This document shows, one piece after another, positions 6,099 through 29,856 of a stretch of DNA of 64,000 bases (positions are counted from its first letter, which is position 1; each line of letters starts with the position of its first letter). The stretch lies in the NCBI GenBank assembly GCA_964553245.1, contig CAZKJM010000001.1:81806-145805 (forward strand). Reading direction: 5' to 3'. The DNA comes from an uncultured Gammaproteobacteria bacterium. GTDB taxonomy: Bacteria; Patescibacteriota; Microgenomatia; Levybacterales; UBA12049. The position numbers and the translations under genes are program-made. The notes beneath the pieces were generated by a model. The model did no database searches and had not been told where the DNA came from. It saw nothing but the letters and a program-made list of their open reading frames with translations.

Positions 6099-6764
6099 CT
6101 ACAGGGCTCCTTTTCCGGAAATCATTGCCCAAGGAGTTTTAAAAACAATTAAAAAGTCGTAAAAAACTGATCTTTTCTTAACATAATCTGCATCCATTTC
6201 TATACGCTTATCAAAATTAATTTCACTTCTGCCTGAAACTTGCCAATATCCTGTTAACCCAGGTTTTATTGAAAGCACAATTTTTACTGCATCCTTAGTG
6301 TTTGGGTATTTTTTTTGCTGTTCTCTTAGTTCATCCGGATAATATGCTCTTGGACCAACTAAGCTCATATCTCCTTTTAAAATATTGATAAATTGCGGGA
6401 CTTCATCAAGAGAGTGTTTCCTTATAAAATGTCCTACCTTTGTTATTCTTGGATCATCTTTTAATTTGTAACTTCCTCTTCTGTATTGTTCATAATATTT
6501 TGCAAACTTCGGATTATTTCTTAAAATATCGTGCGCGTTAATAATCATCGATCGAAATTTATACATTTTAAATGTTTTTCCGTTTTTACCAACTCTTGGA
6601 GGCGTATCTGCCATAATTGGACCCTTGGAATCAATTAATATTGCTAAAGAAACAATTAATATGATTGGTGAAAAAAATATCAAAAGAGTTGAAGAAAATA
6701 ATACATCCATTAATCTTTTAATAATTTCGTAAAACGTACTTTTTTTTATTTCTTTATATGGCAT
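6099..6764 (-). CDS. polyprenyl-phosphate hexose-1-phosphate transferase (bacterial sugar transferase family, WbaP/WcaJ C-domain-like initiating enzyme)
   Basis: 221 aa with one N-terminal TM helix. Conserved KFRSM...DE(V/L)PQ...GDMSLVGPR motifs of the PGPT family are present. Confidence 0.85.
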   Translation of the reverse strand: MPYKEIKKSTFYEIIKRLMDVLFSSTLLIFFSPIILIVSLAILIDSKGPIMADTPPRVGKNGKTFKMYKFRSMIINAHDILRNNPKFAKYYEQYRRGSYKLKDDPRITKVGHFIRKHSLDEVPQFINILKGDMSLVGPRAYYPDELREQQKKYPNTKDAVKIVLSIKPGLTGYWQVSGRSEINFDKRIEMDADYVKKRSVFYDFLIVFKTPWAMISGKGAL

Positions 6765-13618: not shown

Positions 13619-16600
13619 CTAAGATTACTTGATAGTCTGTTACGCTTCCATCGCTATTAAATATTAAAATCTTTTTATCCAAAGACATCTCTGTACTTCT
13701 TAATGCTATATTTAAATCAAGATATTTATTGATTTTTATATTGTCGTTTTTAAAAGACAACCAAACTGCATCCTCTATTCCTACCGGAAAAACCCAAGCA
13801 TCACCGTATTTAATCGGAACATCAACAAAGTTCAACTCAACGGGACCTTTCGCCCACTCGTTTTTATATATTGAATCTATAGAAATAAAAAATTTCTTGC
13901 ACTTATCTCCCGCTCCTAACCAATCAAAGGATGTTTGCCGTAAGCTAATGATGTGGAAAAGAGAATATGTACTAATTAATATAAAAATTGAAAAAACTGC
14001 TATTTGTCTACCGTTAACTAATAAGAATTCAAAAAACTTCTTAACCAAAAGAACAAGAATAAAGATTATTCCAATTGATGCAAGATAACTGTATCTTGAA
14101 GTAATATTTCCAAGACCTATAAAGGGGAGAAGCGAAACCACAAAAAATATAAAACTGAATAAAATAATTCCTTTTTCGTTCCTTTCAAATGCTCGTAAAA
14201 TATTTTTATATACGATGTATAAAATAAATACCACAATTAATATTATTAATGTCGAAGCCAAAATATTTTCTCTTGCATTTATTCTTATTGACTCATAAAT
14301 AGGCAGAGCTATCGGACCCAATAATGTAATAAAAATATAACCGAAAATATTTCCAATAAAGTTAAGAGGTAGTTTTACAAGATTATAGTTATAATCCCCA
14401 TTTAACCAGTGACTGTTTGATAAATATCTTGCGATTAAATAGATAGCTACCGGAATAAAAAAACTTAAAAAGTCCTTTCTTCTAAGAAATGTTTTTATAT
14501 TTGTAATCGAATTATCCTTAAATTTATAAGCTAAGACAAGAAGCGGTAACGCAACTCCTAATTCGTGAAACAACAAGGACATTGCAAAAGAAATAAAAGA
14601 CAGAATAAAAAGATAAAATTTTCGTTTCTCGTCCCAATTAATAAATAATATTAAACCCAGTAATCCAAAAAATGCATTGAACAGGTGTCCTGTCGGAGCA
14701 ATCCAATAGACCATTTCTAGTGATCCGCTCATTGTTAAGAATAATACTGACGCAAAAAATGCTAATAATTTTCTATTAAATACTTTTCTTCCTAAAATAA
14801 AAACTAAGACCGAAATTGCAAAATGCAGAAAAATGGAAACCGAATGATAGACAACTTGATTCAGCCAAAAAATGTTATACATAAAATAAAAGTAAACTTT
14901 TGTTCCTGGTCTATAAAAAAAACCGTCAGACGAGGTAAAAAAACCTAATATTCCATTTTTTGCATCAGCCGCCCATCTAAGCCATGTAAAATCATCGCCT
15001 GTAAAAAAGCTCTCTATGCTTGAAGAAAACAAAAAGAAGGCAATAAAAAATAAATATATCGCAATTGCCCAAGTTGACGTGGCAATCTTTTTTAACTCAG
15101 GCAACAGACTTATTGATTTTTTTTGATAAAGAACAAGCGTTGCAAAAGCTAACCCCATTAAAATCCATAATACAAAAGCAATCTTTGAAGCTTCAAACAC
15201 ATCAATTAACGTTGCATTTAAAGCAAGACCTATCACTCCTGCAACAAAACCCAAAATAAAACTTTTTGCAATTTTCGAGTCAATATCCGGCCAAATTTTT
15301 TTTACATAAACTCCAAAAGATAAAAATATCGCTAAAAAGGAAATAAGACCCAAAAGCCCTACTTCCCCAAGTAATCTAAGATAATTATTGTCAACTGCAA
15401 GACTTACCGAACCATAACCGCTACCTAATAATATGTTTCTATTAAACGCATCAAGAGCCCTTGGCCATTCTCCCTGAAACCTCGTTGTAAAAGACATATC
15501 GTAAGCAGCTGCTCTTTTAACTATAAAATCGCCGTGTAAAACTAAATGATCTGCGCCAATTTTTTCTTTGGCATTTGGAGGAAACTCATAAAAAAAACTA
15601 TCTAATCTATTAACTACTGGTGATAATAATAGATTAATATAACCTGTTCCTTGGGGTAGATTTTCTCCGGTTGAGATGTTTGTTGCAACAACTAATGGTA
15701 CCTTTTCTGGAATATATTTATGGTCTAAAATCGCAGTTGGAGAAGCAAGGGGATCATTTTTATCTCCAGTTAATGCCCTATTTAATTCTTCTTTATCTTT
15801 AACATTTTTTTGTAGTACTATTTTATTTTTAAAGTATTCTTGGTTAACAAATTTAACGTGGCCAACCGACTCTCCTGTTTTTGCATCAACTAACACGTCT
15901 ACTTCTTTAACTGTGCTTTTAAAACGATCAAAAAGAGATGTTTGAAAACTAAGTATTAATATTGAAGAAACTAAAATTATCGGAATCGAGATCAATACAA
16001 GTTTTTTCTTTTGAAAGAAAAGGACTATAAATAACGAAACCAGTAAAACAAAAAAAGAAACTCTCGATACAGTCATAAATAAAAGAATAAATCCAAAAAT
16101 CGAAGTAACTAAAAGAACAAATTTTAAAAGTAGGTTTTTAATTCCGAAAAATAAACTAACAATAATTGGAATTATTAACACCAAATAAGCTGCCAAATCA
16201 TAATGCCCCGCAAAAGTTGACGGAACTCTTGATAATTGAGATAACTGGATTGGAGTACCTTTGGCAAACTCTTCATTCATTGTTAAATAAGCCGGAAAAC
16301 CAAGATATTTTTGACCAAAGCCATATCCAATTACTGCAATAAGTGAGATAACAAGAGCGGCAACTATAAAAGGAAGGTATTTTTTATTTTTCATTCCCTG
16401 AAAAGCAATAAAAAATAAGCTCATGTATTCTATATGTCTTAAGAGGCTCAAGAATGCCACGTTTGGAAAAACATTCGCAATTTTAGGAAAAATCAATAAT
16501 ATTCCATGAAGCGTTGCAACTATTCCAATAGACCAAAAAATAAAAATCGGCATTGTCAAGGGCGTTTTTAAATTGATTTTTTTTAAGAATAAAAGGGCAA

Positions 16601-16769
16601 CCCAAAACAAAAGAACAAATAAAACAATAAAATCTTCAAGTCTTACATATACCCATGTATTTCTAATATCAACCATTGGTATTTTAGGATAAAGCGGAAT
16701 AAATGCTAGTAAAAAAAGTGATATTAAAAATAAAATATTATTCTTAATAAAAGCAATTAATTTATTCAT
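13587..16769 (-). CDS. 1060-aa fusion membrane protein: N-terminal O-antigen-ligase/polymerase-like (Wzy_C-type) domain plus C-terminal GT-C-like polytopic domain
   Basis: The N-half has many TM helices, a large extracytoplasmic loop of about 190 aa, and a GSGYGSVSLAVDNNYLRLLGEVGLLGL block that matches the WaaL/Wzy_C signature (GxGxG...HNxYLxxLxExGxxG; here D replaces H). The C-half (from ...FFTGDDFTWLRWAAD...) resembles the first-loop region of the GT-C-like paralogs at 58275..60572 and 60569..62203. Confidence 0.6.
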   Translation of the reverse strand: MNKLIAFIKNNILFLISLFLLAFIPLYPKIPMVDIRNTWVYVRLEDFIVLFVLLFWVALLFLKKINLKTPLTMPIFIFWSIGIVATLHGILLIFPKIANVFPNVAFLSLLRHIEYMSLFFIAFQGMKNKKYLPFIVAALVISLIAVIGYGFGQKYLGFPAYLTMNEEFAKGTPIQLSQLSRVPSTFAGHYDLAAYLVLIIPIIVSLFFGIKNLLLKFVLLVTSIFGFILLFMTVSRVSFFVLLVSLFIVLFFQKKKLVLISIPIILVSSILILSFQTSLFDRFKSTVKEVDVLVDAKTGESVGHVKFVNQEYFKNKIVLQKNVKDKEELNRALTGDKNDPLASPTAILDHKYIPEKVPLVVATNISTGENLPQGTGYINLLLSPVVNRLDSFFYEFPPNAKEKIGADHLVLHGDFIVKRAAAYDMSFTTRFQGEWPRALDAFNRNILLGSGYGSVSLAVDNNYLRLLGEVGLLGLISFLAIFLSFGVYVKKIWPDIDSKIAKSFILGFVAGVIGLALNATLIDVFEASKIAFVLWILMGLAFATLVLYQKKSISLLPELKKIATSTWAIAIYLFFIAFFLFSSSIESFFTGDDFTWLRWAADAKNGILGFFTSSDGFFYRPGTKVYFYFMYNIFWLNQVVYHSVSIFLHFAISVLVFILGRKVFNRKLLAFFASVLFLTMSGSLEMVYWIAPTGHLFNAFFGLLGLILFINWDEKRKFYLFILSFISFAMSLLFHELGVALPLLVLAYKFKDNSITNIKTFLRRKDFLSFFIPVAIYLIARYLSNSHWLNGDYNYNLVKLPLNFIGNIFGYIFITLLGPIALPIYESIRINARENILASTLIILIVVFILYIVYKNILRAFERNEKGIILFSFIFFVVSLLPFIGLGNITSRYSYLASIGIIFILVLLVKKFFEFLLVNGRQIAVFSIFILISTYSLFHIISLRQTSFDWLGAGDKCKKFFISIDSIYKNEWAKGPVELNFVDVPIKYGDAWVFPVGIEDAVWLSFKNDNIKINKYLDLNIALRSTEMSLDKKILIFNSDGSVTDYQVILDAEVKKNAQK

Positions 16770-18215: not shown

Positions 18216-19313
18216 CTATTTTTTATTTACCAATTCTTCCAGTGCTTTTAAAGTCTCTCTTGCTGTTTTTTCCCATGAAAATTTTTTAACCTGCTCATAA
18301 CCTTTTTTAATCATTTGTGCTCTTAGTTTCTCATTTTTTAAAACCTGATTAATTTTTGTTGTAATGTCGGAAACATTTTCTGGATCAATATAAACGGCAG
18401 CATCTCCACCTGCTTCGGGAAGAGAGGAAATATTGCTGGTAATTACAGGGCAACCGTATTTCATTGCCTCAAGTACAGGAAGACCAAATCCTTCATACAA
18501 AGATGGTAAAACAAAACATTTTGCATTTTTATAAAGTGACGGTAAATCTTCATTAGTTACAAAATCTAGAAACTTAACCCTATCCCTAACCTTATATTTA
18601 TCAGGAGCCGCTAATATTTCTTCATATAGCCAGCCTTTCTTACCAACAATAACTAAATCAACTTTTTTATCTTCAATTTTTGAGAATGCCTCAATTAGTC
18701 TCGAAGTATTTTTTCTTGGCTGAAGAGTCCCAACGAATAATAAGTACTGTTTATCTATTCCAAATTTCTTTAAGTCTGTATTTTTCATATCTTTTAACTG
18801 CTTAATGCCTGGGTAGGTCACAACTATCTTTTTTGAATCCACTTTATATTCTCTAATTATATCACTCTTGCTGGACTTGCTAATTGTAAAGATTAACTTT
18901 GCATTTACTGCAGAATATCTAGTCCAATTTATTAATTGATATAAATCATTTTTTTTAAATAAATCTGGAAAATGAATATAGGAAAGATCCATTATGGAAA
19001 TTGCTGTTGATGTAGGTGAGTATCTTGGGGCATAATGAGACGGTGTAAAAAAAACATCAGTTTTCTCTTTTTCAAACATTAATCTAAAAGGGAGAGCAAT
19101 TTGAGTCCACATTTTTTTAGGTCCAATTACTTTGTATTTCCAATTGCTAGACTCATTTGGCATATCTGAAAGAGGATTATCTTTTAGGTAAATTCTAAAA
19201 TCTAAATTCTGAGTCTTGAATTCATTGAGTTGCTTAAGCAACTCATATGCGTACTCACCTATTCCAACTCTATTTTTTACATTGGCTTCATTACCATCAA
19301 TTCCTATTATCAT
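18216..19313 (-). CDS. glycosyltransferase family 4 (GT-B)
   Basis: EGFGLPVLEAMKYGCPVITSN motif. 365 aa. Complete N- and C-domains. Confidence 0.8.
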   Translation of the reverse strand: MIIGIDGNEANVKNRVGIGEYAYELLKQLNEFKTQNLDFRIYLKDNPLSDMPNESSNWKYKVIGPKKMWTQIALPFRLMFEKEKTDVFFTPSHYAPRYSPTSTAISIMDLSYIHFPDLFKKNDLYQLINWTRYSAVNAKLIFTISKSSKSDIIREYKVDSKKIVVTYPGIKQLKDMKNTDLKKFGIDKQYLLFVGTLQPRKNTSRLIEAFSKIEDKKVDLVIVGKKGWLYEEILAAPDKYKVRDRVKFLDFVTNEDLPSLYKNAKCFVLPSLYEGFGLPVLEAMKYGCPVITSNISSLPEAGGDAAVYIDPENVSDITTKINQVLKNEKLRAQMIKKGYEQVKKFSWEKTARETLKALEELVNKK

Positions 19314-19317
19314 AATC

Positions 19318-19851
19318 TTAAAATCCTGGATAGATCACCTTTAATTTTTGCTTATCTATACCTAAGATATCAATTGCATCCTGTTTCGTAGCCTCAGAAA
19401 TACAAAATACTATATTAGACTCTTTTTTTACCCAATTAAGTTTTCTTCTTTGCGTCTGAACAATTTTATTGTCTGTTTCTTCTGGTTTAGAATATACAAT
19501 AAGGTCATATAAAATTGTAGCCTTAATTGCCTTTCTTGCTGGCGGTTCCGTCCAATCTGAAGTAATAAATAAATCTATGTCTCCGATAAAATTTTCGATT
19601 GGAACAATGTGAAGCTTATTCCATAAAATATTAAGTAAAGTTGGAGGTAGATTAAACGATTTTATCTTTACGTTATTTGAATTACTAAAATTTAACAAAG
19701 ACGAATCAATTTTTTTTCTTAAAGATGAAAAAAATAAAACATATTCATTCTTTGTGTCAATTTCCAAGAGAGCATTAACTAAGTTTTTAAGATATTCTGA
19801 AACTCCAGTGTTTTTGTATGCTAACTGAGAAATATCTATTCCAATTCTCAT
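19318..19851 (-). CDS. GT4 N-terminal-domain-only ORF (177 aa; possible gene remnant or stand-alone half-domain)
   Basis: It aligns with the N-domains of neighbouring GT4s (MRIGIDISQLAYKNTGVSEYLKNL... versus MKIGIDARFWNQTGIGRYTRNL...). It stops after VIYPGF, and there is no C-terminal nucleotide-binding domain with an E-x7-E motif. A complete GT4 starts 4 nt downstream. Confidence 0.5.
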   Translation of the reverse strand: MRIGIDISQLAYKNTGVSEYLKNLVNALLEIDTKNEYVLFFSSLRKKIDSSLLNFSNSNNVKIKSFNLPPTLLNILWNKLHIVPIENFIGDIDLFITSDWTEPPARKAIKATILYDLIVYSKPEETDNKIVQTQRRKLNWVKKESNIVFCISEATKQDAIDILGIDKQKLKVIYPGF

Positions 19852-19917
19852 TCTTTAATTTTACTATTATTTAACCCTAATCTTCAAATATAAATTATTA
19901 TTTGTTAAAATGCTCCA

Positions 19918-20871
19918 ATGGGAATTGAAACAGAAAACAAAAGTATTATTAATTTAGGATCAAATCCTGAGCAAGAAACAAAAACATACAACATTAATGT
20001 AGATAATTTTATAAAAAAATACAAAGTAGAAGATCAAAAAACCATAGAAGTATTACGAGATTTTCCTACTCTTTGCTATCTTTTAGGAAATGTAACAGAG
20101 GAACCTCAAGGAACTGATTCAAGCCCAGATGGAATAAATCGTCATATTTTTTATTTAACAGAAGGTTCTGGAATGTTCGGATTAAAAAACCCAGAAGATG
20201 CTCAAAGATGGAAAGGTATTTTTAATCATATAATGGGATCTTCTAGGCATGTATATTTTTTATCCGAAAAAATTAATGCTTCAACAGCTAATCAAAAACA
20301 AGAATTATTCGATTTGGGATTTGATATTAATTCTCTTCGACAAATAAATCCTAAAATTCTTAGAGATTTTATGTTTGTTAACCATGCTGCAAGAAGACGA
20401 TTTGATGAAAGAAAATGGCATAATCTAAGAGATGATGCACACCCTGAAGGAGAAAGCGAAGATCTAACTACAAATTTACTTCTAGAAAATGATGCGCCTG
20501 AAGAGTTGATAAATTTAATGCGAGCAGAAAACCATACTTACTTAACCACACTTGGACGGAATAATTATCTTCCGAATCTTTCAATTAATATATTGACCTA
20601 TGGTGACTGGACATTTGGTCAAAAACCAGTCACCATAAAGGAAAGGTTTACTCAGCTAAGAAAATCCCGAAGACAACCCGAAGTAGTACTTAATAAACTT
20701 GAAAACTTCGCGCTTTACTTTGAGAAGTCTATAAAAAAAATATTCGGGGAAAGTATTTTTAGCGACATGATAAAATCTGGTCCTTATAGATGGGAAACAA
20801 AAATTCGAGACGCATATTGTTCTGCTTCTGGATTAACCATCGAAGATGTTTTTCCGAGTTATCGCAGGTAA
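19918..20871 (+). CDS. hypothetical cytoplasmic protein, no recognizable family
   Basis: 317 aa with no TM segments. It is rich in D/E/R/H/G, unlike the Lys/Ile/Phe-rich neighbours. It is the only plus-strand gene in the first 43 kb, lies divergent from 19318..19851, and has a TAAAAT hexamer about 10 nt upstream of the ATG. Confidence 0.5.
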   Translation: MGIETENKSIINLGSNPEQETKTYNINVDNFIKKYKVEDQKTIEVLRDFPTLCYLLGNVTEEPQGTDSSPDGINRHIFYLTEGSGMFGLKNPEDAQRWKGIFNHIMGSSRHVYFLSEKINASTANQKQELFDLGFDINSLRQINPKILRDFMFVNHAARRRFDERKWHNLRDDAHPEGESEDLTTNLLLENDAPEELINLMRAENHTYLTTLGRNNYLPNLSINILTYGDWTFGQKPVTIKERFTQLRKSRRQPEVVLNKLENFALYFEKSIKKIFGESIFSDMIKSGPYRWETKIRDAYCSASGLTIEDVFPSYRR

Positions 20872-20886
20872 TAATTTAATAAAATT

Positions 20887-21117
20887 TTATCCCTTGGATT
20901 CATTTTTAAGCTCCTCAATAAATATAAAGATTATTGCTAAGGCAATAAAGGAAGCTGCATAATAAATCAATCTTTGGGCGGTAAAAAATATCCAACTTGA
21001 AAACAAAGGAATCGCCAATATTAAACAAGCCAATCCTAGACTTAAAGTAAGCTTAAAACTTCGTTTGAAAATTAAAAAAACAAATATTATTAAAAAAATA
21101 GCATCTTGTGGTTTCAT
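20887..21117 (-). CDS. small membrane protein (76 aa, 2 predicted TM helices)
   Basis: Hydrophobic ORF located between the unknown plus-strand gene and the GtrB-like gene. Confidence 0.35.
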   Translation of the reverse strand: MKPQDAIFLIIFVFLIFKRSFKLTLSLGLACLILAIPLFSSWIFFTAQRLIYYAASFIALAIIFIFIEELKNESKG

Positions 21118-21164
21118 TTAAACTGTTAAATAAGATTTAAGCCCGTTTTTTAAAAACATTTTCC

Positions 21165-22118
21165 TTAATCCGTACTATATTTTAGTATATACGAAGAAGA
21201 ATCTACTTGATCGTTTTTCTGATTTAAGTGAAGTAAAAGATCTGCTAAAAATCCAGTAAAAAACACCTGAATACCAGCCAATACTAAAAGAATTCCAAAT
21301 AAAAGAAGTGGTCTGTTACCAATTGATTCACCTTGAAATCTAAGTATGCTTAAGTAGGCTAAGATTATTGAGCCTATTCCAAATAAAATTGATCCAAAAA
21401 TTCCAAAAAAATGCATTGGTTTTTTGCTGTATTTGTGAAGAAATATCATTGTAAACATATCTGGAAGGTCTTTAACAACCTTAGATATACCATATTTAGA
21501 CTTTCCATATCTTCTTTCTTCATGCTTAGTTGGTATTTCTGTTACTTTAAAACCTTGCGCAAAACTAAGCAAAGGAATAAAACGATGCATCCCGCCATAA
21601 AGATTTAAGCTTTTTGCTGCCTCTTTTTTATAAGCTTTTAATCCGCAGTTATAATCATGAAGTTTAACTCCCCAAATCGTAGAAGCAAGAAGATTAAAAA
21701 CTCTCGAGAAAAAAACCTTACCAAGCGAGTCTTTTCTATTTTTTCTCCAACCGGATACAACATCGTATCCTTCATCGAGCTTATTAAGAAGAGCTTTAAT
21801 CTCATCAGGTTTATCTTGTAGATCAGCATCAAGAGTGACCATAAAATCGCCTTTTGCTTTCTGAAAACCAATGGTTAAAACCTCAGCTTTACCCTGATTT
21901 TTCCTTAAAGAAAAAATCCTAACATTCTTATTCTTCTTTTCAAAATCCTTTAAAATCTCTAACGAGCCATCATTTGATCCGTCATCAACGAAAACTACCT
22001 CATAAGATTTGTTAATCTTGGAAAGATTTTTAATAAGCTCATCATAAAAATACTGAAGGCTTTCTTTTTCGTTAAAAACCGGCACAACTATACTCAACAT
22101 ATAGTTGTATTCTACCAT
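21165..22118 (-). CDS. polyprenyl-phosphate glycosyltransferase, GT2 (GtrB/DPM1/ArnC-like) with two C-terminal TM helices
   Basis: MLSIVVPVFNEKESLQYF...YEVVFVDDGSNDGS followed by the DAD region. 317 aa. The C-terminal hydrophobic hairpin is typical of GtrB-type Und-P-sugar synthases. Confidence 0.8.
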   Translation of the reverse strand: MVEYNYMLSIVVPVFNEKESLQYFYDELIKNLSKINKSYEVVFVDDGSNDGSLEILKDFEKKNKNVRIFSLRKNQGKAEVLTIGFQKAKGDFMVTLDADLQDKPDEIKALLNKLDEGYDVVSGWRKNRKDSLGKVFFSRVFNLLASTIWGVKLHDYNCGLKAYKKEAAKSLNLYGGMHRFIPLLSFAQGFKVTEIPTKHEERRYGKSKYGISKVVKDLPDMFTMIFLHKYSKKPMHFFGIFGSILFGIGSIILAYLSILRFQGESIGNRPLLLFGILLVLAGIQVFFTGFLADLLLHLNQKNDQVDSSSYILKYSTD

Positions 22119-24154
22119 TTTTTGGTTACATAACCAAACCCAAGGAAGAATAAAATTGAGGCTAAGGTTATTCCACTTAGAATTAAGCCTGTATCTACGT
22201 ATTTTTGCGGTTCATAATATACTGTTGCAGAGTAAGTCCCATCCTTATTGAGCTTAAAACTGTTAAATAACTTATACTTATCAGACATTATTTTTGAATC
22301 ACCAGCTATAAAACTCCAGTTCTTGTCAAAGCTTTCTGAAAAAATTAAATATGTATTTTTTTGAACATTTTCTAAGCTAACCTCATATTTAACTGGACTT
22401 ACATATTCATATTCAACATTACCCTGCCCAACTAGCCAAAAATGATCTTTTGGATCACTAACTTCAAAAACTTTTATTTTCCCAAAGCCTTCAGCGGGTC
22501 TTAACCAAGCTATCTTATTAATCTCATTTACTGTCTTTAAATATTCAACCTCGCTATATACCCTATCTTCTAAAAATATTTCTCCCTCAGAATCATATGG
22601 AACAATAACATACTTAACTGCTGATTCTCGTAAAAGGTTTTCTGTTTCTTTTTTGTCTAGACTCATAAATAAAGCAGAACTACTTGAGGTATTAAAAAGT
22701 TGAGAAGAGGAAATACTTGGATGTCTATTTGTTCCCATTGCAAATCGTTGTGTTGTTGGAACCCAAAAAGTTCTAAAAAATTGATCTTTTGACGAAATAA
22801 AATTATTTAATTTATCATATTCCAACGGAATACTACCCGGTTTAAAAGTTCCTGTCAGTTGACCAAGAATTGCAGGACAAATAAGAAACATTAAATAAAA
22901 GATAACAAGTAGTAAGAATAAATTTGGTAGGATTTTTTTATTTTTAAGTTGTAATTTTGAATTTTGAATTTTGAATTTTGAATTTATGAACACATATATT
23001 TTCGATACAGAGAATGGAATTAACATCGAATAAGATAAAACAATCAAGGCATAAAACTTCGTCGGGTCTCTAAACATCTGCATACCGGGAAGATGATTAA
23101 ATAGCCATAAATATATATTTCCAAACGGCTCATTTGATCCCTTTGCCAAAAATGCTCCAAATAGTCCCAATACTAAAAAATAGATAATATAAAGTTTTTC
23201 TTTTGAACTTTTTAATCCTTTAATAAAAAATAAGCTTAAATAAGCTAATATTGGTAAAATCAAGAATTCCGGCTTTAAAAAATATACTTTTCCAAAAATA
23301 TTTTCCGGCCAATTCGGATGAAGAAGAGAAAAAGAATTCTCAAATTTTGCAAAACTAAAAAACATTACGCCTTGAGAAGTGCTATACGCACTACCCATCT
23401 GCTCTATTGGATTTTGCCCAACAAGTAAAATTGGCAGAATCCAGTAAGAATTTAAAAGCAAAACAATAAATAAAGATAAAATAAACAATATTAAAGTATT
23501 GAAAAATACTTTCTTGTTTACATTTAATAAATTAAAAAGTAATAGAAGCAAAAATATAGAACATATTGCAACATATCCGATTCTTAAATCAAGCATTATC
23601 TGGATAGTTAAAATTAATCCTATTATTAATGTTTTTCTAAATAATTCATAAAAAGATATTTTTACAAAATTGTCTTTGGCAAAAATATTAATAAAAGAAT
23701 ATAAAGTTATTGGAATAAGTGCTATGGATAATGCAATAAATATTTGTCCGCCTCCAACAAGCATTAAAACATAGGAATTAAATAAAAATATTAAAGGGGT
23801 TAAAAAATAAAAATTATTATTTTTAAATAATCTCTTAAAAAGAAAACTTGAGGAAATTATTGAAAGTACAATAAAAGAATAAAAAAATGCAATTTTTTGA
23901 ATTAATTCTAAATTTATTTTTAAAAGATTACCTAAGAATAAAGGAAAACCAATAATAAAATTTAACCATCCATAAGCGTACATTGGTCCTCCCAATCCAC
24001 TTAAACCATTTCCCCAAGCGAATGCATTTAAAGTTGGGTTACTTACTGACAATGTAAAATCTCCCGAATTAACAGCGTTTCCTATAAACCAATTTCTAAA
24101 AACCGTTATTGTTAAAACAAAAAACAAGACTAGGGGAAAATTTTTTAATTTCAT
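22112..24154 (-). CDS. polytopic membrane protein, GT-C/YfhO-like architecture (about 14 TM helices, then a C-terminal soluble domain and a terminal TM anchor)
   Basis: 680 aa. The start overlaps the GtrB-like gene by 7 nt. The ORF contains a heptanucleotide tandem repeat. Confidence 0.5.
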   Translation of the reverse strand: MKLKNFPLVLFFVLTITVFRNWFIGNAVNSGDFTLSVSNPTLNAFAWGNGLSGLGGPMYAYGWLNFIIGFPLFLGNLLKINLELIQKIAFFYSFIVLSIISSSFLFKRLFKNNNFYFLTPLIFLFNSYVLMLVGGGQIFIALSIALIPITLYSFINIFAKDNFVKISFYELFRKTLIIGLILTIQIMLDLRIGYVAICSIFLLLLLFNLLNVNKKVFFNTLILFILSLFIVLLLNSYWILPILLVGQNPIEQMGSAYSTSQGVMFFSFAKFENSFSLLHPNWPENIFGKVYFLKPEFLILPILAYLSLFFIKGLKSSKEKLYIIYFLVLGLFGAFLAKGSNEPFGNIYLWLFNHLPGMQMFRDPTKFYALIVLSYSMLIPFSVSKIYVFINSKFKIQNSKLQLKNKKILPNLFLLLVIFYLMFLICPAILGQLTGTFKPGSIPLEYDKLNNFISSKDQFFRTFWVPTTQRFAMGTNRHPSISSSQLFNTSSSSALFMSLDKKETENLLRESAVKYVIVPYDSEGEIFLEDRVYSEVEYLKTVNEINKIAWLRPAEGFGKIKVFEVSDPKDHFWLVGQGNVEYEYVSPVKYEVSLENVQKNTYLIFSESFDKNWSFIAGDSKIMSDKYKLFNSFKLNKDGTYSATVYYEPQKYVDTGLILSGITLASILFFLGFGYVTKKW
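22953..22987. repeat. heptanucleotide tandem repeat: four perfect AATTTTG units (22953-22980) plus one imperfect unit (AATTTAT, 22981-22987) inside the coding sequence of 22112..24154
   Basis: Read directly: gtAATTTTGAATTTTGAATTTTGAATTTTGaatttatgaa. On the minus strand it encodes ...NSKFKIQNSKLQ.... The unit length is not a multiple of 3. Confidence 0.85.
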
Positions 24155-24474
24155 TTTTTATAAAATCTATCTTTAAATAAAAGATAAAAATATTTAGCTA
24201 ATGACAAAACGAGAAACCCATAAACAAAAGACATATAATGATTTGCTTCGACGGGAGAATTTAAAAGAAAGCTTACTATGCTTATACAAAAAAATATTAA
24301 AGCACAAATTTCAAAACTGAATCTTAATAAAACTAATATTATACAAAAAGTATAAATTACAAAATAATTTATATCGAATATCTGTCTTAATATAAAATAA
24401 TACAAAATAAAAAAAGGCCATTGCAAAAATCTATTGCTTTTTTTATCAAAATATTTTAACCACAACTTTTTCAT
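24151..24474 (-). CDS. small 3-4 TM membrane protein, possible GtrA-like flippase component
   Basis: 107 aa. It sits between two GT-C-like genes and downstream of the GtrB-like gene. The basic C-terminal tail ...AKYFYLLFKDRFYKK resembles GtrA-family C-termini only loosely. Confidence 0.3.
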   Translation of the reverse strand: MKKLWLKYFDKKSNRFLQWPFFILYYFILRQIFDINYFVIYTFCIILVLLRFSFEICALIFFCISIVSFLLNSPVEANHYMSFVYGFLVLSLAKYFYLLFKDRFYKK

Positions 24475-27400
24475 TTTTTATTAAGTCTTATATACAAAAT
24501 TAATGTTAAAATGAATACTGCTACTAAGATAAAAGCATTTCTTATCGTCTTTTTATACCCGATATATTCAATAATTATCGTGTCCGTTGGAGAATCTATG
24601 TACCATGCATTCGAGTATGAACTAGAAAAATGGTAATAATTTTTTTTATTATCATCTATTGGATAAGCAATCCAATCTTTATTATACGTTTGATTAAAAG
24701 CTAAAAATCCAGAAAAATTTTTTGACATTTTTAATTCATATTTCATTGGACTGTTTTTTCTTACATCTAAAATTCTTCCTGTTGTTTGTTTTTTGGAAGT
24801 TTCTAGCAAACAGTAAAGCCTTACATCGTCATTGCCTACTTCAGGAGAAATTATAAAATCATTATAAATACTAGGATTATTAGAATTCGTATCTAAATTA
24901 ATCACATAAAAATAATACACTGGGTGATCAAAATTATTCACATTAAATTCCTTCGAAAAAGCTTGTTGCTTATTGCTCTTTTTGAGTATCGTTCCAAAAA
25001 CAATAGAATTTTTATCGTGTACTCCATCTCTTATTTCATTTAAATCTAATTTTCCCTTGGACAATAACAAAACATATGTTCCTTCAGATTCTTCATTAAG
25101 AGTAAAACCAATATGATAGCTTCCATTTTTTAGCAAACCAGCTTTTATCTCATTTATACCTCCTACATTTTCCTGCAGACTATCTAACTCTAAGATATTT
25201 TTTACATTATATTTAATCTCTGCTTGAAAGCTTCCTTTTGAAAGAGTAATGTAACCCGGAAGAGATAACTCGTTATTGTTAATAGTAACTTTATTAATAT
25301 TTAAATTACTATTTCTTGCCTCAGCGAAACACCTATAATCTCCTGTATGTGATATATCAAGCCTCATTCTGTAAACTTTTTCAATATAATCTGTCTCCCA
25401 AATATTGTTTTTAATATCATTAATTGACTTTTCTATGTATGATAAAAGATAAAGTATTTGCGTATTCAGCTCATTATCTCTTAGGGGATTGATTTTTGTA
25501 GGATTAAAATTTCCACCGGTAACAAAGTTTATCAATTTTTCCTGCTGTGGGATTAGAAAATTAATTACTTCAATACTTTTGTTGTTTTTTGTAAAAAAAT
25601 CTGAATTTAACGAATTTAAATTATTTATCGTGTCTCTAAAAGATAAAATATATTTTGACGCCTGGTCCTTAACTTCGCCTGTTGTACCATTATCTATTTT
25701 TTTAAATAAATTCAAAAATTCATTCTGGGTATGAATTAACGAATAACTAATTTTATCTTCATCGGTTAATATTACTGGATTTGTCTTTCCGATAATTGTT
25801 TTTATTACCGTTTTAATTTTCTTTATGAAGCTATCGTCATCTACTTGAGGTAATTTTGCATTAATCTTAATGCAGCCTACGCAATTGGCAACAGAAGAAT
25901 AATCACTAATTTTTTCACTAAATTGCTTTAGTAAAGTATTTTCACTTACAATGATGTATCCCTCAACTGCGCCTATTTGTCTTGATAAAATCTCAAATTC
26001 CTCCCCTGAATTTAGTTGTAAATTAGTATATACCAGCCTTGAAGGCGTTGAAAAACCATAGTTAAAATCTTTAATTGTATTTAACTTAAATAACTTAAAA
26101 TATGTATTTTCATAAATCTTATTAAATTCTTCATCTTTTTCAAGCCCAAAAGCTATTTTTTCCGGATCAATATCATTTAAGTTTAAATAATTTGTGTAGT
26201 AAAAAGGCACATTATCTTTTTTTACTAAAACTAAACCTATTTGGTTTTGGACTAGAAAATTTTTAAAATCTTGCAAGTTATCTTTTTGAAGCATCAAATA
26301 TGGAGACATATTAAAAGAATCAGGTTTGTTTTGAATAAATTGTGTATTTAAAAAACTGCAATTTATCAACCTGTTTAAAATTTCCTGTCCAACATAGGAG
26401 TAACCCGTTTTTTCCCATACTGCGTTTGAGATAATTGATGTTTTCGGAATAACAAGAGTTGTCGTACGTTGACATTCCTTTTCTAAATTGAGTTTTAAAT
26501 CATAATATTCAACTGGAATTTGAGTTTTTGAACTAAAAACATAGTCTTTATTACCGTAAGTGAAATTAACTTTTTTAACATTGTCGTAAGAAAAAATAAA
26601 AAATGGTCCCGTTATTATCGCGGTAACACACAGCACAAGAAAAAATGTAGCAAATATTGTCTTTTTCATTTTGTAGCGAATAAGATAATCCAGTAGTAGC
26701 ATTAAACCAACACCTGTTAAAACAAAGTAACTGAAAAAGTAAAAAAGTCCTGCTTTTTGATACGCATCTCTAAACGCTCCAAAAAATGGAATATAATCAA
26801 ATGCAAATCTTAATATCCAAGACAATGGAGGATTCCCGGCTTTCATAATAAATATGAACATCAGAAGTAAAAATAAAAAATATATTAAAATATTTTTATT
26901 CTTTATATTTTTTAGCCTAAGCATCAAAAAAACAATCAAAAAGGGAAGAAGGAAAATCGGTAAAGTGAAAACAGAACCGCTGACATAAAATTCATTCCAG
27001 CTAAATGCATTATTTATCATCATCGGACTACCCAAGATCCTTAAAATATTTAACAAGGTGCTCCCTTGGGCATTAACGTCAAGATATATAGAGGTTCCCA
27101 AGCTAGCCTGGGATTCATACTGCTTAGCCAAAATTGAGATTATTGGAGAAAACCACCACGAGTTAATTAAAACGACTAATAAAAAGAATAAACAAATATT
27201 TAATGTTTTCCTACTGATTAATTTTGTATTAGAAGTAAAAAAATAAAAGAATAGGTATATAAAGATGATTATTAAATATTGAGCAAGATAGATATATGAA
27301 ATAAATCCTGGGATTAAAAATAATTCACTCAAAAAAAATGCGAATAACCAAAATGACCTTTTATGCTGATTATTTTTGTCTAATGGAAAAAGCTTAATAA

Positions 27401-27893
27401 GACATAAAAAATTAAATGGAAGCATGCTGTAAATATAAATTTGGGGATTAAACATAAAATAAGCATAATAAAAAGTGTAAAGATTTAAAGAATAAATAAT
27501 TGAAAATGAAATGATGCCGAGTGAAATATATTTATTCTTATTAATTTTTAGATAACTGGCAAGATAGCTCAAGAATAAATAATAGCTAATAATAGATAAC
27601 ATTATGAAAGAAATATATAGAAGAAATTGCGCAGTTGACAAGCTTGAAAATAACTCCGCAAATAAGGATGTTGGCAAAACATAAGGAATCCAAGCCCAGC
27701 CAAAACCAAAATCACCAGGAAAAATATTGCTATCCCATGTATCAAGAAAATGTAAAGAATGCGTTAAATCAAAAGAAAGAAGACTATCCCAATAATAAAT
27801 GATTGTACCTCCCTCAAACCATTTATGTACTGCCATTACCGCAATAAAAAAACTAAATATAATTAAAACAACTGCCTTCAGGATTTTGCTCAT
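24471..27893 (-). CDS. 1140-aa giant membrane glycosyltransferase-like protein (N-terminal GT-C-like polytopic domain, about 680-aa extracytoplasmic domain, C-terminal TM anchor; AftD-like architecture)
   Basis: About 12 N-terminal TM helices with an acidic first loop (YYWDSLLSFDLTHSLHFLDTWDSNIFPGDFGFGW). A long hydrophilic region rich in N/Y/T follows, and the final segment is a TM helix, ...AFILVAVFILTLILYIRLNKK. Confidence 0.5.
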   Translation of the reverse strand: MSKILKAVVLIIFSFFIAVMAVHKWFEGGTIIYYWDSLLSFDLTHSLHFLDTWDSNIFPGDFGFGWAWIPYVLPTSLFAELFSSLSTAQFLLYISFIMLSIISYYLFLSYLASYLKINKNKYISLGIISFSIIYSLNLYTFYYAYFMFNPQIYIYSMLPFNFLCLIKLFPLDKNNQHKRSFWLFAFFLSELFLIPGFISYIYLAQYLIIIFIYLFFYFFTSNTKLISRKTLNICLFFLLVVLINSWWFSPIISILAKQYESQASLGTSIYLDVNAQGSTLLNILRILGSPMMINNAFSWNEFYVSGSVFTLPIFLLPFLIVFLMLRLKNIKNKNILIYFLFLLLMFIFIMKAGNPPLSWILRFAFDYIPFFGAFRDAYQKAGLFYFFSYFVLTGVGLMLLLDYLIRYKMKKTIFATFFLVLCVTAIITGPFFIFSYDNVKKVNFTYGNKDYVFSSKTQIPVEYYDLKLNLEKECQRTTTLVIPKTSIISNAVWEKTGYSYVGQEILNRLINCSFLNTQFIQNKPDSFNMSPYLMLQKDNLQDFKNFLVQNQIGLVLVKKDNVPFYYTNYLNLNDIDPEKIAFGLEKDEEFNKIYENTYFKLFKLNTIKDFNYGFSTPSRLVYTNLQLNSGEEFEILSRQIGAVEGYIIVSENTLLKQFSEKISDYSSVANCVGCIKINAKLPQVDDDSFIKKIKTVIKTIIGKTNPVILTDEDKISYSLIHTQNEFLNLFKKIDNGTTGEVKDQASKYILSFRDTINNLNSLNSDFFTKNNKSIEVINFLIPQQEKLINFVTGGNFNPTKINPLRDNELNTQILYLLSYIEKSINDIKNNIWETDYIEKVYRMRLDISHTGDYRCFAEARNSNLNINKVTINNNELSLPGYITLSKGSFQAEIKYNVKNILELDSLQENVGGINEIKAGLLKNGSYHIGFTLNEESEGTYVLLLSKGKLDLNEIRDGVHDKNSIVFGTILKKSNKQQAFSKEFNVNNFDHPVYYFYVINLDTNSNNPSIYNDFIISPEVGNDDVRLYCLLETSKKQTTGRILDVRKNSPMKYELKMSKNFSGFLAFNQTYNKDWIAYPIDDNKKNYYHFSSSYSNAWYIDSPTDTIIIEYIGYKKTIRNAFILVAVFILTLILYIRLNKK

Positions 27894-28897
27894 ATTATGT
27901 TTTTACCAATTGAACCCTCGCGAACTATTTTATTTAACGAATATCTTTTCATAAACTTTAACATTAACTTTGGGATTAACAATGAAGAAACTAACCAAAA
28001 CCAGAAAGAAAAACTATATAAAAATTTTTTTCTTAATTGTATTACCCTTCTTGCTCCTTTTATTAGGTTAAAATTGGTATTAGAATACTTATTTGCCGGA
28101 AAATGTCTAATTAATTCTCTTATTATTTTGTCAATGAACTCATTTGCTTCTTCTTTATTAAGTGACTTTTGTAAAAATAATAAATACTTTTCAAATGAAA
28201 ATTTACCTTCTTTTATGTAAAAAAAGGGGTGATTAGGGTTTTTATCTTTATCTATCCACCGAGCAAAAAATAAATATTTGGAAATAAAAAATCCTCCGCT
28301 CTCTTTTATATTACCTATTAACATGTCTATCCATGGGATAAGCTCTGAATTAATTAATCTATTTTTTTTATTCTGCTTCAATATGATTCCCGTAAGAAAA
28401 AATGGATCCACTTTTTCAAGGAATTTGATAATTTCATAATTGCCCAAATTAGGATTCAGACTCTTATTTGTTAAAAATTTATTATCCTTATTAAAATTAA
28501 AAATTTTTCCTGTTTTATCATTAACGCTTAAGTAATTTGCTCTAATAAATCCATAATTATTCTTTGTTAAATGTTTATAAATATGCTTTAAAGCATTACT
28601 ATTCTTCATATAGTCGTCGTCTCCATGAAAAATAATGTATCTTCCCTTAGATAATGAAATTGCTTTCTGAAGGTTACCTATCCAAGTAATTTTTTTTGCA
28701 TTTTTTATATACTTTATTCTTGAATCCTTAAAGCTTAATACGATTTCTCTTGTTGAATCACTAGAGTTGTTATCAGAGATTACAATCTCAAAATTTTTAA
28801 AAGTTTGTTTAAGTATGGCAACTATTGCTTTATTAAGATATTGTTCTCTATTGTAAGTGGGTATCAAAATTGAAAAAAAGGGGTTATTTACTTTCAT
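27890..28897 (-). CDS. glycosyltransferase family 2 (GT-A)
   Basis: FFSILIPTYNREQYLNKAIVAIL...ISDNNSSDST. 335 aa. Confidence 0.75.
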   Translation of the reverse strand: MKVNNPFFSILIPTYNREQYLNKAIVAILKQTFKNFEIVISDNNSSDSTREIVLSFKDSRIKYIKNAKKITWIGNLQKAISLSKGRYIIFHGDDDYMKNSNALKHIYKHLTKNNYGFIRANYLSVNDKTGKIFNFNKDNKFLTNKSLNPNLGNYEIIKFLEKVDPFFLTGIILKQNKKNRLINSELIPWIDMLIGNIKESGGFFISKYLFFARWIDKDKNPNHPFFYIKEGKFSFEKYLLFLQKSLNKEEANEFIDKIIRELIRHFPANKYSNTNFNLIKGARRVIQLRKKFLYSFSFWFWLVSSLLIPKLMLKFMKRYSLNKIVREGSIGKNII

Positions 28898-29856
28898 TTA
28901 TATAACATTTGTTCCATTGTTTGATAATATTTGAGAAACTTCTTAACTTTTATTTCGTCTGGTAATACAATATAGAATTTTTTACATTCAATTAGTAATT
29001 CTTTTTCTTCATCTGTAAAAAGTTTCTCTGTAATTTTCTCTCCGTTCCTTTTTCCAACAATTTTTATTTTTATTTTTTTACTATTTGAGTTCTTTATAAT
29101 AGTTTTTTTTGCTAATTGATAAATATTTTCCTCGTCCATCTTTAACACAAATATCTCTTGACCTTTCATTAACGTAGCCGCAAGAAAAACTAAATTAACT
29201 GCATCGGGAATTGACATAAAAAACCTTTTCATTCTTTTATCGGTAACTGTTACTGGTCCTCCTTCATTAATTTGATTAATCCATACTGGTATAACAGATC
29301 CTCTTGAGTTCATAACATTCCCAAATCTAACAACTGAAAACTTAGTAAGAGCAGACCCAGAGTAATATTTGGAACAGATTACCATTTTTTCCATAAGAAG
29401 TTTTGTAATACCCATAACATTATTAGGATATACTGCTTTATCGGTAGATATGGCAATTAACCTATCAACATTATTTTTAATTGCCAAGTCAATTATATTT
29501 TGTGTCCCATAAACATTGGTCTTTATTGCTTCAAAAGAATTATTTTCACAATATGGAACGTGTTTTAATGCAGCTGCATGAAAAACAATATTAACCCCTT
29601 GAAAGGCTTTTTCAAGTCTATCTTTGTCTCTTATATCTCCAATAAAATATTTAATATCTACTGGACTAGAAAGTTTTTTCAGTTCTTGTTCAAGAAAAAA
29701 ATGCTTAGACTCATCCCTGGAGTATACTCTAACTTGCTTTGGCCTGTATGGCAAAATTTGTCTTACGATTTCACTTCCAATTGATCCAGTTCCACCAGTT
29801 ACCAAAATTATTTTTTTATTAAAAGTTCGAAATAATTTTTTATTTAATTTTGTCAT
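28894..29856 (-). CDS. nucleotide-sugar (UDP/GDP-GlcNAc) 4,6-dehydratase of the PseB/FlaA1/CapD/LegB family
   Basis: KKIILVTGGTGSIGSEIVRQIL...VRVYSRDESK...FIGDIRDKDRL...FHAAALKHVP...ISTDKAVYP is collinear with Campylobacter/Helicobacter PseB. 320 aa. Confidence 0.8.
   Translation of the reverse strand: MTKLNKKLFRTFNKKIILVTGGTGSIGSEIVRQILPYRPKQVRVYSRDESKHFFLEQELKKLSSPVDIKYFIGDIRDKDRLEKAFQGVNIVFHAAALKHVPYCENNSFEAIKTNVYGTQNIIDLAIKNNVDRLIAISTDKAVYPNNVMGITKLLMEKMVICSKYYSGSALTKFSVVRFGNVMNSRGSVIPVWINQINEGGPVTVTDKRMKRFFMSIPDAVNLVFLAATLMKGQEIFVLKMDEENIYQLAKKTIIKNSNSKKIKIKIVGKRNGEKITEKLFTDEEKELLIECKKFYIVLPDEIKVKKFLKYYQTMEQMLYK

Follow-up and report, generated by a model that had tools for sequence, protein, structure and literature searches.

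How might a bacterium of the Patescibacteria decorate surface structures beyond its membrane, and which genes would do so? Members of this lineage, the candidate phyla radiation (CPR), are tiny, mostly uncultured episymbionts whose surface forms the interface with their hosts. They are monoderm, hence not expected to make lipid A, and to our knowledge their envelope glycobiology is almost uncharted. Here, we pursue this question in a 64,000-nt stretch of contig CAZKJM010000001.1 (the window; ~29% G+C), which carries a Levybacteria-type glycan locus of ~58 kb. An initial annotation, made from the letters alone, had marked out three of its genes as a Gtr-like module: a GtrB-like glycosyltransferase, a polytopic enzyme likened to YfhO, and a small membrane protein likened to GtrA. 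We propose instead, at a probability of roughly 0.6, that the locus encodes two extracytoplasmic glycosylation cassettes. Cassette 2 combines the GtrB-like enzyme with a 680-amino-acid (aa) GT-C-type glycosyltransferase and a 76-aa membrane protein that lies outside the annotated span; cassette 1 pairs a second, larger GT-C protein with a small partner of its own. This proposal is based on the families and folds of the glycosyltransferase family 2 (GT2) enzyme and both GT-C proteins, on the synteny of the small proteins, and on the absence of GtrA similarity.

All the genes of these cassettes lie on the minus strand and are transcribed in the order 335-aa GT2, 1140-aa GT-C paralogue, 107-aa membrane protein, 680-aa GT-C protein, 317-aa GT2, and 76-aa open reading frame (ORF). 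Four nucleotides are shared by the 335-aa GT2 gene (27890..28897) and the 1140-aa gene (24471..27893) at 27890-27893, by the 1140-aa and 107-aa genes at 24471-24474, and by the stop and start of the 107-aa (24151..24474) and 680-aa (22112..24154) genes at 24151-24154, the last overlap being the one that the initial annotation had reported. The 680-aa stop had likewise been described as overlapping the start of the 317-aa GT2 gene (21165..22118). This overlap, of 7 nt, exists only with the longest ORF; the gene caller starts the GT2 at Met7 (22100), which yields a 311-aa protein and an 11-nt spacer after the 680-aa gene. Met7 is probably the true start, yet the assignment remains ambiguous, because the gene caller and the orthologues in four other loci, which start with the corresponding 'M[IL]S[IA]V.PV[FY]NE', favor Met7, while the closest relative (locus L090) retains the six-residue extension ('MVEY[NG]YM') and was called with the overlap. 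The 76-aa ORF (20887..21117) follows the GT2 gene after a 47-nt spacer, and the interval 20887..28897 is one run of genes, translationally coupled for the most part. A signal scan of 19800..29000 found no terminator-like sites, and promoter-like sites were rarer than in shuffled sequence; this fits a single long transcript but is not informative.

The 317-aa GT2 is predicted to be a polyprenyl-phosphate glycosyltransferase of the GtrB/ArnC/DPM1 type. It matched Pfam Glycos_transf_2 (PF00535; 2e-35, aa 9-169), and its best NCBIfam models were ArnC (4.6e-54) and PgfS (1.2e-41). We base the assignment on alignments to solved structures that run the full length of the protein: residues 8-295 of 317 align to ArnC (9bhc, 3e-46; also 8vxh), and the alignment to Synechocystis GtrB (5ekp, E = 3e-30) spans both C-terminal transmembrane (TM) helices, which hydropathy places at about aa 234-262 and 265-298. 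The 'VDDGS' and 'DADLQD' motifs line up with the same motifs of ArnC and GtrB. Identity to Escherichia coli YfdH (GtrB) is 28% (E = 4e-23), and the orthologues in four loci compared directly are 57-63% identical. The enzyme had been called a textbook GtrB/DPM1-type GT2 with a C-terminal TM hairpin, and Pfam, the ArnC and GtrB alignments and hydropathy all agree. Its scores stay below the equivalog cut-offs (183.6 bits versus 529 for ArnC and 143 versus 500 for PgfS), and therefore the sugar specificity of the enzyme is not fixed.

The 680-aa protein had been described as a polytopic GT-C enzyme of the YfhO or PMT_2 kind. By sequence it is nearly featureless: there was no Pfam match at E ≤ 1, the single NCBIfam match was to the MmpA family, far under its cut-off (E = 2e-5, 23 bits), and sequence and profile searches with the family found no match among PDB sequences. 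It belongs to a family of at least 964 homologues (E ≤ 1e-3; 42-62% identity), nearly all full-length, almost all from Levybacteria/Patescibacteria assemblies and without exception annotated as "hypothetical." The AlphaFold2 (AF2) model (mean predicted local distance difference test score [pLDDT], 77.9) places ~13 TM helices in aa 1-430; an extracytoplasmic domain rich in beta structure follows at aa 460-647, and a C-terminal TM helix at aa 649-677 serves as an anchor. When this model was compared with the PDB by Foldseek, ranks 1 to 25 were exclusively GT-C enzymes at probability 1.0 (AftD, STT3, DPY19, AftA, PglB, AglB, ArnT, and ALG12), with AftD on top (E = 2e-6) and unrelated folds beginning at E ≥ 0.14, at TM-scores that were low throughout (0.2-0.4). 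In an alignment of 57 family members (A1), Asp32 in 'S.GDF' is invariant; it sits just after the first TM helix in the first outer loop and so qualifies as the conserved first-loop acidic residue of GT-C enzymes, with a putative catalytic role. The same alignment has a dense invariant block at aa 263-292 and the motif 'K.GN.PFG...P.F.MFRD'. The block falls within a loop (aa 254-294) that is highly conserved yet modeled at low confidence, recalling the mobile catalytic loops known from ArnT and PglB.

Because the leading structural matches are all GT-C enzymes and Asp32 is invariant, we assign the 680-aa family to the GT-C glycosyltransferases, with AftD-like enzymes as its closest relatives in the model-based comparison. 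The more specific family labels did not hold. Sub-threshold Pfam matches among the 57 relatives were to GT-C_AftD (seven), DUF6541 (seven), PTPS_related (one), and YfhO (one; PF09586, E = 8.3e-5), and neither the 680-aa protein nor any of these relatives matched PMT_2 (PF13231). Comparison by hhalign showed no similarity to the GtrC-type protein YfdI of E. coli, as expected for the diverse GT-C enzymes of Gtr systems, and showed the family to be unrelated to a 1060-aa polytopic protein encoded elsewhere in the window (13587..16769, minus strand). That protein gave a weak Wzy_C match (E = 0.015).

The conserved company of the 680-aa gene was determined in 80 loci fetched from species-level genomes that encode a member of its family (L-numbers), in addition to the window. 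Each component was searched for with its own profile; the 80 loci, the window among them, in which a 680-family gene scored at least 250 bits were then classified, and 74 of these extend at least 1.3 kb downstream of the GT-C gene. A homologue of the 76-aa gene was present in 62 of the 80, always downstream of the GT-C gene and on the same strand. It follows the GT-C gene directly in 23 loci, completes a contiguous GT-C, GtrB, 76-aa series as in the window in 14, and lies directly behind a displaced GtrB orthologue in 9; in the remaining 16 it lies elsewhere downstream, for instance behind GT-C and epimerase genes in L014. In L001 and L005, orthologues of the 76-aa protein (49-52% identity) are encoded immediately behind the GtrB-like gene and the GT-C gene, respectively. 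A GtrB orthologue (≥200 bits) occurs within 10 kb in 44 of the 80 loci, downstream of the GT-C gene in all but one. L090, the closest relative (61% identity), keeps the full order of the window, namely, GT2, 1100-aa, 102-aa, 673-aa, GtrB, 74-aa, and a GT4 N-domain-only gene. In the window, the corresponding GT4 N-domain-only ORF (177 aa; 19318..19851, minus strand) and a complete GT4 gene (365 aa; 18216..19313, minus strand), both recognized by Pfam, come after the 76-aa gene; in relatives the two directly follow it, in the same order in L001, L005, L014, and L090.

The 76-aa protein has three hydrophobic segments and the motif 'SIPLFxxWIFFTA[QE][RH]'. Across 39 sequences with ~50% mean identity (alignment A3), Q4, D5, P37, F39, F44, T46, and A47 are invariant. 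The family has no Pfam match; GtrA (PF04138) matched 0 of 39 members even at E ≤ 10, and hhalign of A3 against the E. coli GtrA protein YfdG returned a probability of 0.07%. From the synteny in the 80 loci we therefore delimit the conserved module as the 680-aa GT-C, the GtrB-like GT2, and the 76-aa protein, a composition predicted from gene order. The small companion of the 680-aa enzyme would then be the 76-aa protein, just beyond the span first annotated, and not the 107-aa protein.

The 107-aa gene appears to belong with the 1140-aa gene upstream of it. This large protein had no family-level match in Pfam or NCBIfam, but A1 was aligned by hhalign to its aa 10-486 in 425 columns (probability, 96%; E = 2e-9), and the motif 'K.GN.P...P.F..FRD' is common to both. 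Since the TM domain of the 680-aa family has its homologue in the N-terminal 486 residues of the 1140-aa protein, we regard the latter as a paralogous GT-C enzyme, with an external region much bigger than that of the 680-aa protein and a C-terminal TM anchor. A 1167-aa protein in L007 is 44% identical over its full length and lies in the same context. The 335-aa GT2 gene, translationally coupled to the 1140-aa gene, encodes a generic enzyme resembling PglI, TuaG, and WcaA in Pfam and NCBIfam; it is 44% identical to a 349-aa GT2 of L007, and the pairing of the two genes is kept in L007 and L090. In L001, proteins of 775 and 318 aa are encoded upstream of the 680-aa homologue; BLASTP ruled them out as a split form of the 1140-aa protein. 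The 775-aa protein carries a 'FPGFVVFRNFYDK' motif reminiscent of the 'FRD' motif of the GT-C proteins.

Among the 80 loci the 107-aa family was found in only 5, each time directly after a 1140-like gene, and it is on this synteny that we assign the gene to the 1140-aa cassette. Two tandem pairs of 1140-like and 107-like genes occur in L035 (1764-8892). In L005, a 106-aa gene stays with the large gene, and the 688-aa GT-C gene is ~2 kb off, behind an epimerase and a GT2 gene. The pairing of a large GT-C-like gene (1000-1170 aa) with an overlapping hydrophobic ORF (93-133 aa) recurs more widely: in six further loci, a hydrophobic ORF of 93-129 aa overlaps the end of a more divergent GT-C-like ORF of ~1130 aa (L021, 4461-4739; L030, 8280-8645; L039, 7094-7462; L045, 10351-10737; L050, 4347-4670; L087, 4644-4985). 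These small ORFs have a common 'vAE.lG..YLiL' motif near the last helix.

The 107-aa protein itself does not belong to the GtrA family. Its AF2 model (pLDDT, 85.9) has four helices, in keeping with the three to four first counted, and both of its termini are rich in lysine and arginine, so that the predicted topology (N-in/C-in) is GtrA-like in shape alone. The family, collected as 16 and then as 59 clusters (alignment A2), carries the motif 'EANHY.SFVYG'. The 107-aa protein matched neither Pfam nor NCBIfam, PF04138 failed to match any of the 16 family members scanned at a cut-off as loose as E ≤ 10, and hhalign of A2 against YfdG, from the annotated CPS-53 gtrABC unit, gave a probability of 0.15%. 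When 1.84 billion representative proteins were searched exhaustively with an HMMER profile, just 36 relatives of 71-139 aa came back, and Foldseek of the model against viral predicted structures (BFVD) and the PDB returned nothing below an E value of 1. The proposed module had been made to depend on GtrA similarity of the small ORF and a GT-C identity of the large one; the former is absent, and the latter is borne out by fold.

The synteny with GtrB in 44 of the 80 loci lends indirect support to a lipid-phosphate-linked donor for the 680-aa enzyme, and the recurrence of the GT2/GT-C pair with a small membrane protein makes the logic of three-component extracytoplasmic glycosylation reasonable. 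Four observations weigh against the two-cassette proposal. STT3, PglB, and AglB match the 680-aa fold almost as strongly as AftD does, so that the fold alone does not fix a monosaccharide-phosphate-lipid donor. There is no GtrB orthologue within 10 kb in 36 of the 80 loci. The window encodes two further short GT2s of the PpgS/DPM1 kind and at least five other GT-C-type proteins, and consequently the pairings of donor and enzyme are not unique. Finally, hhalign between the 76-aa and 107-aa families gave a probability of just 19%.

The main rival builds on the first of these points: the 680-aa protein, the 1140-aa protein, or both would act as an oligosaccharyltransferase, ligase, or polymerase that moves undecaprenyl-pyrophosphate-linked glycans onto protein or the cell wall, while the GtrB-like gene serves other GT-C enzymes. 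The Foldseek matches of the 680-aa model to STT3, PglB, and AglB (E = 5e-6 to 1e-3) and the large extracytoplasmic C-terminal domains of both proteins would suit such a role. So would the contents of the locus, which has a phosphoglycosyltransferase (Bac_transf initiating transferase; 6099..6764) and a Wzx-like flippase (53726..55045) and no clear Wzy or ligase, and in which lipid-linked monosaccharides could be consumed by the four PMT_2 proteins and the single PTPS_related GT-C. Yet a WWDxG-type motif is found neither in the 680-aa sequence nor in the conserved columns of A1, the best fold match and the best sub-threshold Pfam matches lead to AftD-type enzymes, whose donors are polyprenyl-phosphate monosaccharides, and an orthologous GtrB-like gene lies within 10 kb on the same strand in those 44 loci and is directly adjacent in 14. 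The synteny and the missing motif disfavor this rival, to which we give perhaps one chance in five.

A different doubt concerns the small proteins, which could be conserved membrane peptides with no part in glycosylation (factors for membrane insertion or stability, or what is left of the C-terminal helices of a GT-C) whose linkage reflects operon inertia. Both are very small and lack a recognizable domain or fold match. But the 76-aa gene has stayed beside the GT-C or GtrB-like gene through at least four arrangements in 62 loci, with seven residues invariant in 39 sequences, the 1140-like and 107-like genes were duplicated as a unit in L035, and even the divergent ~1130-aa GT-C-like genes carry an overlapping small hydrophobic ORF; we consider inertia improbable. 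Homology among the small-protein families is possible but unproven. By BLASTP, a 70-aa protein of L001 weakly resembles the 107-aa protein (28% identical residues in 68 aa), and hhalign of a further alignment (A4) gave probabilities of just 9% against the 107-aa family and 31% against the 76-aa family. The motifs 'TAQR', 'EANH', and 'VAE.' align in the same register in all three hhalign comparisons, which are statistically weak.

The weakest rival, a canonical GtrA-GtrB-Gtr(type) or CsbB/YfhO/GtcA unit with the 107-aa protein as a GtrA-family flippase for a YfhO-like 680-aa enzyme, could draw on the size, four helices, and predicted orientation of that protein, its 4-nt coupling to the GT-C gene, and the adjacent GtrB-like GT2, but we think it very improbable given the negative GtrA comparisons, the paucity of relatives and of fold matches, the association with 1140-like genes even where the GT-C gene lies apart, and the lack of a YfhO or PMT_2 match in the 680-aa protein.

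The initial annotation had also flagged a frameshift-prone repeat in the 680-aa gene. It is present: four perfect copies of TTCAAAA in the sense of the gene (22953..22990, minus strand; 5.3 copies by Tandem Repeats Finder) occupy nt 1173-1200 of the gene and encode a cytoplasmic loop (aa 391-400). Adding or removing a single unit in silico cuts the protein short, at 405 or 418 aa, and a change of three units keeps the frame. Across the 80 loci, 18 GT-C genes of the 680-aa family contain at least three perfect copies of a heptamer, with differing units, and nine arrays, that of the window and those of eight other species, lie at the same relative position in the gene (0.56-0.61). Arrays in GT-C genes include those of L019 (11120-11147), L025 (11152-11179), L026 (11152-11179), L030 (11122-11149), L046 (11112-11139), and L028 (11304-11331), among others. 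When arrays of at least four perfect copies were counted by period in 1.53 Mb, period 7 accounted for 30, of which 13 are inside GT-C genes (80 per Mb versus 12 per Mb outside them); periods 4 and 8 had one array each, and periods 5, 6, 9, and 10 had none.

These counts suggest slipped-strand contingency loci throughout the lineage. Scans of metagenomes for repeat-length variants of the window's allele returned no match, the window allele included, and no GT-C gene split at a heptamer array (an OFF allele) was found in the 80 loci. In the absence of OFF alleles and length variants, phase variation of the 680-aa gene is something that we infer on good grounds rather than a demonstrated property. 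Our search of the literature on Patescibacteria and phase variation found nothing relevant. A second heptamer hot spot lies in the downstream GT4 N-domain-only ORF (~179 aa) at relative position 0.26-0.30, with arrays in L021 (12958-12985), L033 (18789-18816), L039 (16663-16690), L040 (21075-21102), L044 (6125-6152), L065 (19263-19290), L068 (12052-12079), and L070 (16383-16410); the window's own copy of this ORF has no array of three or more perfect units.

Under the two-cassette proposal, the 317-aa GT2 would load undecaprenyl phosphate with a single sugar, taken from a nucleotide sugar, at the cytoplasmic face, and the lipid-linked sugar would then be moved to the outer face. There the 680-aa GT-C, and perhaps the 1140-aa protein too, would take it as donor and decorate a pre-formed acceptor, for which a glycopolymer of the cell wall, a lipid-linked glycan, and a surface protein all come into question. 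For the third component, the 76-aa protein is the leading candidate, either as an obligate accessory subunit of the GT-C enzyme or as a replacement for GtrA in donor translocation; no GtrA, SMR, or MATE protein is encoded adjacent to the module, and the sole Wzx-like protein is 30 kb off. The distribution of charges suggests that the small proteins turn their conserved polar motifs to the outside, where the GT-C active site lies, and the predicted outward position of Q4, D5, and T46-A47-[QE]-[RH] in the 76-aa protein favors an accessory, active-site-side role. Cassette 1 (the 335-aa GT2, the 1140-aa paralogue, and the 107-aa four-helix protein) would be a parallel pair of large GT-C and small partner, using the same lipid-linked donor or another. 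Slipped-strand mispairing at the heptamer could switch the decoration made by the 680-aa enzyme on or off. It is the donor, the acceptor, the flipping step, the association of the proteins, and the phase variation that we infer in this scheme. The concept first annotated, an undecaprenyl-phosphate-sugar synthase acting with a GT-C enzyme and a small membrane protein, is retained, as is its embedding in a much larger locus, while its composition, family labels, and gene order are revised.

If this proposal is right, Patescibacteria would use the widespread strategy of decoration from a lipid-linked monosaccharide by a GT-C enzyme, with an unannotated GT-C family of at least 964 members and without GtrA, and the 76-aa and 107-aa proteins would offer two compact candidates for the third component still to be found. 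Even for Gtr and Arn-like systems of the classical kind, it is not settled which protein is the flippase. The heptamers, with their recurrence, suggest that decoration may vary between on and off, which would matter for recognition by hosts or phages. A bolder extension, which we put forward tentatively and hold to be rather doubtful, is that the 76-aa, 107-aa, and divergent 93-129-aa ORFs represent an unrecognized class of mini membrane partners of GT-C enzymes, either outer-face active-site subunits or new polyprenyl-phosphate-sugar translocators that replace GtrA, alongside GT-C enzymes switched by heptamer repeats across the lineage. The heptamer-switched GT-C gene would in that case be the first simple-sequence contingency locus described in CPR bacteria.

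The surrounding glycan locus covers roughly 4.1-62.2 kb of the window. It encodes NeuB, UDP-GlcNAc 2-epimerase, and PseB-like and other sugar-nucleotide enzymes, many GT1, GT2, and GT4 proteins, four proteins of the PMT_2 kind (one as a fusion with a GT2), a single PTPS_related GT-C, and several polytopic proteins without a Pfam match; no GtrA-family protein was found among the window ORFs scanned. The fused protein (765 aa; 58275..60572, minus strand) is a natural combination of an N-terminal GT2 domain and a PMT_2-type GT-C membrane domain and is adjoined by the PTPS_related gene (60569..62203). The two short GT2s (234 aa, 45222..45926; 246 aa, 52395..53135; both minus strand) have PgfS, ArnC, PpgS, AglJ, and dolichyl-phosphate hexose transferase as their best NCBIfam matches and are probably extra polyprenyl-phosphate sugar synthases for the other GT-C enzymes of the locus. 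Large ORFs without a significant Pfam match are the 1060-aa gene mentioned above, a 694-aa gene (40240..42324, minus strand), and a 580-aa gene (43478..45220, plus strand). The minus-strand order from the 76-aa gene to the GT4 N-domain-only gene, otherwise conserved, is broken in the window by a plus-strand ORF of 317 aa (19918..20871) that matched neither Pfam nor NCBIfam; Fic, HicAB, or AbiEii-type genes are inserted at nearby positions in L001 and L090, which suggests that this interval is an insertion hot spot for accessory or defense-like genes. Many public metagenome-assembled genome records with a Levybacteria-type locus (L011, L016, L028, L029, and others) are titled "uncultured Gammaproteobacteria bacterium"; judged by gene content and nearest named relatives, these titles look like a mislabel from bulk submission.

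We found nothing relevant in the literature on Patescibacteria and GT-C enzymes. The locus was compared with systems described elsewhere. Three-component systems consist of a polyprenyl-phosphate sugar synthase, a flippase of varying family (GtrA/SMR-like or MATE) that is not experimentally proven, and a GT-C enzyme (PMC11127046). The gtrABC units by which phages and enterobacteria glucosylate O antigen, such as those of E. coli CPS-53, Shigella, and Salmonella, share with our locus a GtrB protein homologous over its full length, a polytopic GT-C, a small membrane protein in the operon, and the logic of a lipid-linked monosaccharide donor used by a GT-C (PMC11127046). The initial annotation had seen their gene order mirrored here, but CPS-53 runs gtrA(yfdG)-gtrB(yfdH)-gtrC(yfdI), whereas transcription in the window runs small protein, GT-C, GT2, small protein (A-C-B). 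The locus also differs in lacking a GtrA-family protein, in the 680-aa GT-C, whose C-terminal part is a large domain plus a TM anchor and whose sequence is not related to that of YfdI, and in its chromosomal setting within a ~58-kb glycan locus rather than on a prophage. In Bacillus and Listeria, CsbB/GtrB, GtcA (of the GtrA family), and YfhO glycosylate teichoic acids (PMC5836110, PMC7389260). That system resembles ours in its monoderm-type envelope and in combining a cytoplasmic GT2 synthase, a small membrane protein, and an extracytoplasmic GT-C; it differs in that the 680-aa protein has no YfhO (PF09586) match and the small proteins fall outside the GtrA/GtcA family.

AftD (PDB 6W98/6WBY), a mycobacterial arabinofuranosyltransferase of the GT-C type whose periplasmic domains are large, is the best structural match of the 680-aa model (E = 2e-6), GT-C_AftD (PF11847) and DUF6541 (PF20176) are the commonest sub-threshold Pfam matches among the relatives of the 680-aa protein, and in both proteins the N terminus forms a GT-C TM module, with an extracytoplasmic domain rich in beta structure behind it. 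Against this, the 680-aa protein is half the size of AftD and under every Pfam threshold, with TM-scores of only 0.2-0.4, and its putative donor synthase is ArnC/GtrB-like instead of belonging to the phosphoribosyl pyrophosphate (PRPP)-dependent decaprenylphosphoryl-phosphoribose (DPPR) synthase route. The ArnC-ArnE/F-ArnT pathway, which serves to put aminoarabinose on lipid A, includes ArnC, the nearest to the GT2 among solved and curated proteins (3e-46 and NCBIfam 4.6e-54), and has a small-membrane-protein flippase and a GT-C, of which ArnT is a weaker fold match to the 680-aa model (E = 1.6e-2); the GT2 nevertheless scores 183.6 bits against a cut-off of 529, and ArnE/F (SMR/EamA-like) proteins are not present here. 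Finally, the GT136 three-component systems for pentofuranose have a MATE protein in place of GtrA and a PRPP-dependent phosphoribosyl transferase as donor synthase (Kelly et al. 2024, PMC11127046). They differ from our locus, whose donor synthase is a GT2 and which has no MATE protein adjacent, but provide a precedent both for a flippase that is not fixed and for new GT-C families founded from such loci. Set beside these systems, the locus of this CPR lineage is best read as a decoration system of the three-component type in which the GT-C family is unannotated and the mini proteins are not GtrA.

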